From IMG/VR virus record IMGVR_UViG_3300045988_140317, positions 1-40,101 of that record: DNA of 40,101 nucleotides; one strand, written 5' to 3'. The stretch is from a virus. The notes below the pieces were generated by a model. That model worked only from the letters and a program-made list of their open reading frames with translations, did not search any database and was not told the DNA's origin. Both the position numbers and the translations under genes were made by a program. The stretch's first letter is position 1. Each line of letters opens with the position of its first letter. Positions 29,701 to 30,174 of the stretch are shown here, one piece after another.

Positions 29701-29730
29701 ATTTTAAAATAAAAAAACGTCAAAATTTCC
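29701..29730 (-). promoter_or_regulatory. Late box a: GGAAAT-N18-TAAAAT upstream of portal
   Basis: Read on the minus strand. It shares 18 identical nt (29713-29730) with box b. Confidence 0.45.
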
Positions 29731-29738
29731 ACTCTTGA

Positions 29739-29771
29739 AAAAAATAAAAACGGGAGTACAAATGCACTCCC
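29739..29771 (-). terminator. Intrinsic terminator of the ncRNA cassette
   Basis: GGGAGT...ACTCCC stem followed by GTTTTTATTTTTT on the minus strand. Confidence 0.8.
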
Positions 29772-29830
29772 ACCATCTAGAAGAATGAAAAATTTAGAGA
29801 GGCTGACAATCTACCACCATAGATTGCCAA

Positions 29831-29900
29831 TAGACCCTGCAGGAATCGAACCTACGTCAGCAAGCTTGCACCTCCTATGTTTCCACTACACCAAAAGTCT
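29831..29900 (-). ncRNA. tRNA-like module B (acceptor, D arm and T arm drawable; anticodon arm aberrant)
   Basis: AGACTTT/AGGGTCT acceptor, GTGT-AGTGGAA-ACAT D arm, GTAGG-TTCGATT-CCTGC T arm. The central GCAAGCTTGC palindrome replaces a normal anticodon stem-loop. Confidence 0.45.
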
Positions 29901-30046
29901 GCCACTTTGCCTGAACCTCATCTAGCAAAATTGTTACACGCAACCTGTCTTGTGTAAAGTTTTAAAATGTGCTCACCATCTTGACATTGATTAGGCTTTA
30001 TTTTTGACGATAACGAGAGATGACCACGCTCGTCCAGGAAATCATA

Positions 30047-30132
30047 TAGGGGTTGATGGAATCGAACCATCATGCTTAGTCAAAAAAATATTACCGTTTC
30101 AGCAGGAGAGCTAACTAGCCTGTCCTTACCCC
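30047..30132 (-). ncRNA. tRNA-like module A (T arm plus 5-bp acceptor-like helix, long irregular body)
   Basis: GATGG-TTCGATT-CCATC T arm, and a GGGGT/ACCCC closing helix starting about 6 nt after the predicted TSS. No canonical cloverleaf can be drawn. Confidence 0.4.
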
Positions 30133-30144
30133 ATTGATAACTTC

Positions 30145-30174
30145 ATTATACAAGATAAAAACGTCAAAATTTCC
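30145..30174 (-). promoter_or_regulatory. Late box b: GGAAAT-N18-TATAAT promoter of the ncRNA cassette
   Basis: Read on the minus strand, directly after the terL stop. Confidence 0.55.

Follow-up and report, generated by a model that had tools for sequence, protein, structure and literature searches.

What is carried in the 543-bp gap that separates the gene for the large terminase subunit (terL) from the portal gene in the IMG/VR virus record IMGVR_UViG_3300045988_140317, and what might it do? We analyzed positions 1 to 40,101 of that record, a stretch of 40,101 nucleotides referred to below as the window, in which the late genes lie on the minus strand according to open reading frame (ORF) calls. 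An earlier note on this DNA had described the gap as free of any ORF preceded by a Shine-Dalgarno (SD) sequence and had proposed a self-contained non-coding cassette there, with its own promoter and terminator and two tRNA-like modules, A and B; ORF calls and coordinates bear out the first statement, and comparative data support the second. On balance we favor the reading that the cassette is an accessory, moron-like non-coding transcription unit of an oral-streptococcal siphophage, whose tRNA-shaped RNAs would be processed and, more speculatively, most likely serve as tRNA mimics. Module A, on which much of the argument turns, represents an RNA family not described before; tRNA-like mimics, the general kind to which it belongs, are familiar, and its distribution is narrow.

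Across the cassette region the window shares ~98% identity with Javan64, a Streptococcus phage known as a prophage in S. anginosus, whose GenBank record leaves the terL–portal gap without any annotation. Read along the minus strand, the gap begins with a promoter-type element (P1), after which come module A and, beyond a spacer of 146 nt, module B; then follow a hairpin, a terminator, a second promoter-type element (P2) and portal. The features are given here with the flanking genes last.

30145 to 30174, minus strand: P1, promoter-type element GGAAAT-N18-TATAAT, which holds the upstream repeat copy; exact 18-mer, geometry shared across lineages.
30047 to 30132, minus strand: module A, tRNA-like RNA with no Rfam family, matched by covariance model R1 at exactly these coordinates; 5-bp acceptor, 6-bp T stem, T loop GGUUCGAUUCC.
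29901 to 30046, minus strand: spacer, 146 nt, specific to the lineage of the window; no outside match, no detectable structure, holds part of a non-conserved 51-residue ORF.
29831 to 29900, minus strand: module B, a derivative of the tRNA-Trp family; tRNA-Cys(gca) by ARAGORN, 36.3 bits with the Rfam tRNA model (RF00005), aligns to phage tRNA-Trp.
29803 to 29830, minus strand: 11-bp hairpin 3' of module B, present in the minimum-free-energy and centroid folds.
29739 to 29774, minus strand: intrinsic terminator closing the cassette; 11 pairs and a T-run by terminator scan, -14.4 kcal/mol, z = -6.98.
29701 to 29730, minus strand: P2, second promoter-type element, GGAAAT-N18-TAAAAT, ahead of portal; homologous single copy upstream of portal in Javan207, also in contig L014.
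29665 to 29686, minus strand: hairpin with U-tract between P2 and the portal ribosome-binding site (RBS), a terminator-like site in the conserved portal-upstream region, outside the cassette.
30180 to 31934, minus strand: terL, the upstream flank, a 584-residue ORF; terminase large subunit in the Javan64 annotation, PF03354/PF20441 on near-identical proteins.
28449 to 29636, minus strand: portal, the downstream flank, a 395-residue ORF; PF04860 on homologues, and so annotated in Javan64.

The modules share an 11-mer, GGTTCGATTCC, which the earlier note had found in two copies; over all 40 kb of the window there are indeed exactly two, each of them in the gap and on the minus strand (29842-29852 and 30058-30068), against 0.37 expected even with 1 mismatch allowed. 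That they are simply two ordinary tRNAs was rejected, in keeping with the earlier note: ARAGORN and Rfam called only module B, the anticodon arm of which is abnormal, and left module A uncalled. For module A the best Rfam match at E<=10 was tRNA-Sec (E = 0.37), whose 19.6 bits fall short of the threshold of 47.

Copies of the cassette fall into two types. Type 1 comprises Javan64, eleven contigs from IMG/VR, ENA or metagenomes, and one S. anginosus assembly, with portals 94-100% identical. A second lineage was reached from portal homologues (P0005, P0006, P0007; 65-71% identity) with a terL–portal gap of only ~350 bp, and pattern scans recovered about 30 viral or metagenome contigs of this type 2. 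In 43/43 copies the tRNA-like cassette lies ~50 nt after terL on the same strand; module B is always present in type 1 and never in type 2, whose gap contains no tRNA and whose module A gave no tRNA match at all with ARAGORN or Rfam. The type-2 contig L014 carries its module A homologue at 3694-3788 (95 nt), with GGAAAT-N18-TATAAT before it and a hairpin and terminator after it. Between the lineages module A is 80% identical, compared with 45% at the third codon positions of portal (portal itself being 71% identical), and the sequence 3' of the module cannot be aligned; for both of these reasons we infer purifying selection on the module A RNA. Module A is retained in all copies of the two lineages.

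The pattern of substitution points to a conserved structure. From one type to the other the acceptor stem changes from GGGGU/ACCCC to GGAGU/ACUCC and three T-stem pairs are swapped compensatorily, and a type-2 sub-lineage (L106-L110) shows a further, independent swap of G-C to A-U, so that five acceptor and T-stem pairs change on both sides, from two independent events. Over 13 distinct sequences, 94% of cells are paired, compared with 35-58% when the 3' partners are slid, and RNAalifold recovers the same four helices unaided. The proposal that module A is tRNA-like is strengthened by its conservation in a second lineage and by these compensatory pairs.

What is secure in module A, which is ~86-95 nt long, is an acceptor-like stem of 5 bp that stacks on a T stem of 6 bp, together with a canonical T loop and a U in the position of the discriminator; no CCA is encoded. 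The palindromic CUAG core allows two folds of the interior, which is therefore ambiguous; neither fold contains a D stem or an anticodon stem-loop. In Model X there are two local arms: AGG/CCU with GCU/AGC forms the first, and in the second GCU/RGC closes a loop rich in A and U. Model Y joins distant segments in a 6-bp helix, CUAGNN/NNCUAG, which adds a further compensatory pair (U-A to A-U); it also contains a short hairpin, AGC/GCU, and leaves AAGGA(C)AGG single-stranded, as a possible counterpart of the D loop. The module also contains an invariant motif outside the helices, UGCU[G/A]AAACGGU. Two type-2 variants, in L109 (2160-2254) and L107 (4527-4621), are changed at otherwise conserved positions: in one of them G57 of the T loop becomes A, so that the purine is kept, and in the other a C-to-A change breaks the closing pair of arm 2 in Model X and falls in an unpaired position of Model Y. 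The latter variant weakly favors Model Y.

Among known RNAs, the tRNA-like domain of transfer-messenger RNA (tmRNA, SsrA) resembles module A in that the ends of the molecule form an acceptor stacked on a canonical T arm, the 5' end of module A being GGGG; under Model Y the likeness extends to a stem-less, purine-rich D strand with an invariant GG and to a long irregular helix in place of the anticodon arm. Module A differs in having G-C or A-U rather than G3·U70, in lacking an encoded CCA, a tag reading frame and pseudoknots, and in its length of 86-95 nt as against >250 nt. We rejected it as a tmRNA: the ARAGORN and Rfam tmRNA models fail, the only match being an 11.7-bit T-loop fragment to cyano_tmRNA, and pair 3-70 is G-C or A-U. 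Bacterial Y RNAs (YrlA) are small non-coding RNAs, some of them phage-encoded, that mimic the T arm, D arm and elbow of tRNA without decoding. The termini of YrlA form the Ro/Rsr-binding stem and its tRNA-like part is internal, whereas the termini of module A form the acceptor stem; the cassette had no Rfam match to the Y RNA family in the permissive scan, and the comparison went no further than that. When module A was aligned to phage tRNA-Ser, tRNA-Phe and tRNA-Lys, the only resemblances were the T loop and a short likeness of UGCU.AACGG to the anticodon arm of tRNA-Ser(GCU), whose anticodon loop and 3' stem strand the invariant motif resembles; with the class II-like length this gives a hint of descent from tRNA-Ser(GCU) that is too weak to claim.

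Module B, by comparison with its relatives, is a degenerate or retargeted tRNA of the Trp family. Rfam (threshold 29 bits for this family) and ARAGORN place it at exactly the same coordinates, and its body is intact, as the earlier note had described for the acceptor, D arm and T arm: a 7-bp acceptor, a D arm with G18G19, a T arm with GTTCRAnnC, and U8 and A14. In the Rfam alignment the posterior is high over these three arms and the anticodon arm is skipped through a local end. When the gap was compared with phage genomes by BLAST, module B had matches to annotated tRNA-Trp genes of OlisA3, phiL47 and EcS1, and also to stretches without annotation in the S. suis phages Javan565, Javan577 and Javan584 and in the S. 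oralis phage Javan362; in these places ARAGORN and Rfam confirm genuine tRNA-Trp(CCA) genes, with 51-64 bits. In a MAFFT alignment module B lines up base for base with phage tRNA-Trp (Javan565, Javan362, OlisA3); in comparison it has lost 1 nt from the 5' strand of the anticodon stem, has GCA in place of CCA, and carries A instead of G as discriminator. It shares with phage tRNA-Trp (Javan565, Javan362, OlisA3, phiL47) the acceptor pair A1-U72, the D arm (GGUGUAGUGG.AACA), the T arm and the length, at 74-82% identity. The earlier note had seen the anticodon arm as replaced by the palindrome GCAAGCTTGC; the arm is aberrant, as the Rfam skip indicates, but it is not foreign, since it aligns with that of tRNA-Trp minus 1 nt plus substitutions. 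The suggestion of a degenerate phage tRNA fits module B, which combines tRNA-Trp homology with a defective anticodon arm.

This arm is where near-identical phages diverge. Type-1 copies differ by ~2% over ~660 nt, and yet the ~24-nt anticodon arm of module B occurs in two forms that differ at 13 positions, including a 2-nt indel. In the second form, found in L006-8 and L061 (phages 97–98% identical), a well-paired stem of 4-5 bp closes a loop of 8 nt, GUGAUAAG or GUAAUAAG; ARAGORN reads four-base 'anticodons' GATA and AATA from these loops, Rfam scores the modules at 50-52 bits, and one stem pair differs by a double change from G-C to A-U. All three loop versions are non-canonical: they have G32, and the loop either numbers 8 nt or has 7 nt but is closed by a stem of only 3 bp. 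The arm forms are independent of the flanking polymorphisms, because L083 combines L007-like flanks with the GCA form. The body of the tRNA is held constant while the anticodon arm changes, and no version looks like a normal decoder. A diversity-generating retroelement or a gene-conversion template was considered and rejected as the source: the phage has no second copy of either arm, and neither the phage database nor IMG/VR yielded a donor tRNA, the six other IMG/VR matches being chance occurrences in non-tRNA sequence. Within module B (29857-29877, minus strand) a perfect SD-like AGGAGGU stands 7 nt ahead of a UUG, the first codon of a 3-codon frame (UUG CUG ACG UAG), and the arm has a HindIII palindrome (AAGCTT) as well; both are probably coincidence.

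The cassette is bracketed by an 18-mer, GGAAATTTTGACGTTTTT, exact at 29713-29730 and 30157-30174, with similarity that reaches 36 nt at 83%. The earlier note had taken these direct repeats as an insertion or duplication scar and had separately proposed a promoter, GGAAAT-N18-TATAAT, after the terL stop. The repeats are exact, but the scar reading calls for refinement: they are the 5' parts of two 30-nt elements of geometry GGAAAT-N18-TAnAAT, which occurs only twice in the window against 0.22 expected. This geometry is preserved in 5/5 copies examined from three phage lineages (two in the window, two in L014 and one in Javan59), P1 being 86% identical between lineages, and in type 2 both copies keep it with a different intervening sequence. 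Javan207, a relative without the cassette, has a single copy directly upstream of portal, followed by GTATTGTGGA, a hairpin and the RBS as in the window. The promoter proposal gains from the conserved geometry, although a generic sigma-70 scan makes no call at P1. A target-site duplication was rejected because two copies of a conserved promoter-type element fit better with the single copy in Javan207 and the shared geometry. The repeats look like two copies of such an element, likely maintained as functional elements rather than as a passive scar, and duplication on insertion is plausible. Most probably a cassette with a promoter inserted into the promoter region upstream of portal, or duplicated that region, and both copies were kept since both are used. 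At the other end of the unit, the clean terminator that had been predicted is confirmed by scan and fold, with its stem at 29749-29774 and the T-run adjoining.

Several observations concern similar elements and hairpins nearby. In Javan59, a phage of S. anginosus (L005, MK448817; 3007-3240), GGAAAT-N18-TACAAT stands ahead of ~200 nt of non-coding sequence with a terminator-like hairpin at its end, between a small ORF and a scaffold gene, in an unrelated gap; no tRNA and no Rfam match was found in it, and it may be a second, unrelated small-RNA unit with the same type of promoter. In the hairpin 3' of module B, three stem positions (29804-29806) that are polymorphic among near-identical phages all keep pairing (G·U/G-C, U-A/U·G). 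The hairpin and U-tract before portal begin a few nt past the predicted P2 start site and recur in three lineages, at 29665-29686(-) in the window, 3944-3965 in L014 and ~2285-2310(-) in L092 (Javan207), with stems that differ in sequence (AGAGAGGCAGAAATGCTTCTCT, GGAAGGGCAAAGAGCGCCTTCC and GGAGTGCTAGCTTTCTAGCGCTCC); this structure could be a 5' mRNA stabilizer, an attenuator or an antitermination target.

Judged by what related phages carry there, the terL–portal junction is an accessory, moron-type variable slot, because the cargo differs or is missing. The S. suis prophage Javan565 (L002, MK448806) has in this slot a small ORF and then, at ~2150-3067, the large RNA GOLLD (Rfam 256 bits at 2519-2909) with tRNA-Phe(GAA) and tRNA-Trp(CCA) directly behind it, all unannotated; Javan577 and Javan584 appear to share this arrangement. 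The slot holds a DUF4352 gene in L094 (2189-2896), a hypothetical gene with an opposite-strand Gp49/helix-turn-helix (HigB/HigA-like) toxin-antitoxin pair in L097 (1572-2889), and a small ORF in phi3396 (L091, 1283-1507); it is empty in L095/96. Like phage morons, the cassette sits between conserved structural genes with a putative promoter element and a terminator, and is present, absent or replaced in relatives; it differs in that its cargo is RNA rather than protein. The earlier suggestion of a larger ornate phage RNA was not borne out for the window itself: GOLLD (RF02032) and ROOL gave no match at the gathering threshold or at E<=10, with Javan565 at 256 bits as positive control, and no tmRNA, Y RNA or other Rfam family beyond the tRNA calls appeared at E<=10. 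For the slot, the suggestion is nevertheless apt, given the GOLLD and two tRNAs that Javan565 has there. GOLLD and ROOL adjoin tRNA islands in prophages, and tRNAs sometimes lie within the GOLLD linker (PMC12286853, PMC5737381). The cassette is likewise non-coding RNA cargo beside a tRNA gene in a prophage, in a slot identical to that of Javan565, but module A is ten times smaller and the window contains no sequence or structure signal of either RNA.

Module B and the flank on its 3' side have their homologues in the tRNA-Trp of Javan565, which occupies the same slot, and in ~50 nt downstream of it. The cassette therefore looks mosaic, part of it a module A unit and part the tail of a tRNA array of the GOLLD type. 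Could it then be a decaying remnant of such an array in a permissive slot? The homology with Javan565 speaks for this account, as do the degraded anticodon stem of module B (36 bits, versus 50-64 in relatives) and the spacer without detectable structure or homologue. Module A fits it poorly: it is conserved well above near-neutral sites, carries compensatory changes from two independent events, keeps its promoter element, is retained in all 43 copies of both lineages, and resembles neither GOLLD nor the Javan565 gap. We rejected it in particular as a relic of the GOLLD/tRNA-Phe region of Javan565, to which neither BLAST at word size 7 nor the covariance model found similarity. Nor would decay pile 13 changes into the anticodon arm of module B and spare the rest of the tRNA. 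As an account of the whole cassette we regard debris as improbable; it is plausible for module B and the spacer alone and unlikely for module A.

A different explanation, to which we give equally little credence, is that the modules are nothing but cleavage signals for the ribonucleases (RNases) P and Z that part terminase mRNA from portal and capsid mRNA, uncoupling their stability and dosage. The position of the cassette exactly at the terL–portal boundary in every copy agrees with this, P2 and the conserved 5' hairpin ahead of portal suggest that expression is reset there, and RNase P measures the acceptor/T-arm stack (PMC4919913), which module A preserves. The promoter-like element and the strong intrinsic terminator, however, already part the transcripts; relatives such as Javan207 and L095 do without a tRNA-like element, and others have protein-coding cargo instead. 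In addition, UGCU[G/A]AAACGGU and the 5' AAGGA(C)AGG of module A exceed what a cleavage signal needs.

Quite doubtful, and a shade more so, is the idea that module B and its 8-nt-loop variants are working decoders, tRNA-Cys(GCA) in the window and quadruplet-reading or frameshift tRNAs in the sister phages. The ARAGORN calls (Cys-GCA in the window, GATA/AATA in L006-8 and L061), the Rfam scores above the gathering threshold and the universal features of the tRNA body speak for it, and an additional nucleotide in the anticodon loop is known to turn tRNAs into +1 frameshifters (PMC7803779, PMC4238358). Against it, the anticodon arm in the window has a stem of 3 pairs with two mismatches and a loop GUGCAAG, lacks nucleotide 26, and has G/G at positions 32 and 38, where a canonical arm would have nucleotide 26 ahead of a 5-bp stem closing a 7-nt loop with a pyrimidine at 32, U33 and a purine at 37; a competing hairpin, GCAAGCUUGC, is also possible. 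Identity as tRNA-Cys needs a U73 discriminator, and module B has A73. Three 'anticodons' in phages 97-98% identical are unlike a codon-supply function, and the type-2 lineage has no module B at all.

That the spacer encodes a 51-residue protein (30073->29918), the RNA features being incidental, is very improbable and was rejected: although 7/9 substitutions in this ORF fall on third codon positions, it has no SD, its start codon lies within the T stem of module A, a 1-nt indel alters its C-terminal 13 residues in seven copies, it has no homologue in Pfam, PHROG or a database of 5.8 billion proteins, and it is absent from type 2 and uncalled by gene callers even in its own lineage. The spacer had no BLAST match outside the type-1 lineage. 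One large structured RNA spanning the cassette was likewise rejected, the fold of the whole transcript having z = -0.55.

Returning to the tRNA-mimic reading, the cassette would be transcribed on its own as a primary transcript of ~400 nt, from which RNase P and RNase Z would cut out both modules, since these lack an encoded CCA like the neighboring genuine phage tRNAs. CCA would then be added to both. The products would persist as stable, tRNA-shaped RNAs without normal decoding. Speculatively, and by analogy, these RNAs may tie up or draw away a factor that recognizes tRNA by its elbow or acceptor and not by its anticodon; candidate targets are a tRNA-directed defense nuclease or a tRNA-processing or tRNA-modifying enzyme. 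Several defenses cut tRNAs in the body, the anticodon arm or the 3' tail, and phages can counter them with tRNAs of their own and with anticodon-loop changes (PMC10264068, PMC11555353, PMC12445682, PMC12851939). Our best guess as to function is a tRNA mimic whose maturation depends on RNase P and RNase Z. A bolder version, which we consider unlikely, holds that module A founds a new class of phage tRNA mimics with tRNA-like maturation by RNase P, RNase Z and the CCA-adding enzyme, a decoy or inhibitor of an anti-phage nuclease or another factor that reads elbow or acceptor, and that the hypervariability of the non-decoding module B arm, natural 8-nt loops included, records an arms race with defenses directed at the anticodon arm.

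Several results weigh against the tRNA-mimic reading. Module A folds only mildly better than shuffled sequences (z = -1.9 for type 1 and -0.4 for type 2), and its covariation comes from two deep lineages and one sub-lineage, too few to decide between Models X and Y. Its distribution is confined to oral-streptococcal phages: covariance model R1 finds it only in the two lineages, with no match in GOLLD-bearing or other gaps and no remote homologue; a scan of 185k species-representative genomes gave only chance matches; and searches with degenerate patterns through IMG/VR, GTDB genomes and JGI metagenomes brought up, besides unrelated tRNAs or noise, only the two known types and no third lineage. 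The generic sigma-70 scan misses P1, as GGAAAT makes a poor -35 hexamer, and no tRNA-related enzyme is annotated elsewhere in the phage.

The sole defense-type gene seen in the phage is at 1287-2360 of Javan64 (L099), beside the integrase, where an 'abortive infection bacteriophage resistance protein' is annotated; we found no link between this protein and the RNA cassette.

Phage tRNAs are now viewed as countermeasures to tRNA-cleaving immunity, and GOLLD and ROOL recur beside tRNA islands. Against this background the locus offers a minimal and tractable case, in which a ~90-nt tRNA-shaped, non-decoding RNA under selection is accompanied by a tRNA that evolves fast in its anticodon arm only. 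Module B is in its own right an unusual case of anticodon-arm hypervariability. Were module A inert, it would still be an unannotated, conserved RNA family worth adding to annotation resources; if it is a processed and stable mimic, it would represent an RNA-only strategy of anti-defense or translation interference in temperate phages of the human oral microbiota, and would offer a comparative way into the question of why structured RNAs and tRNAs travel together in phages.

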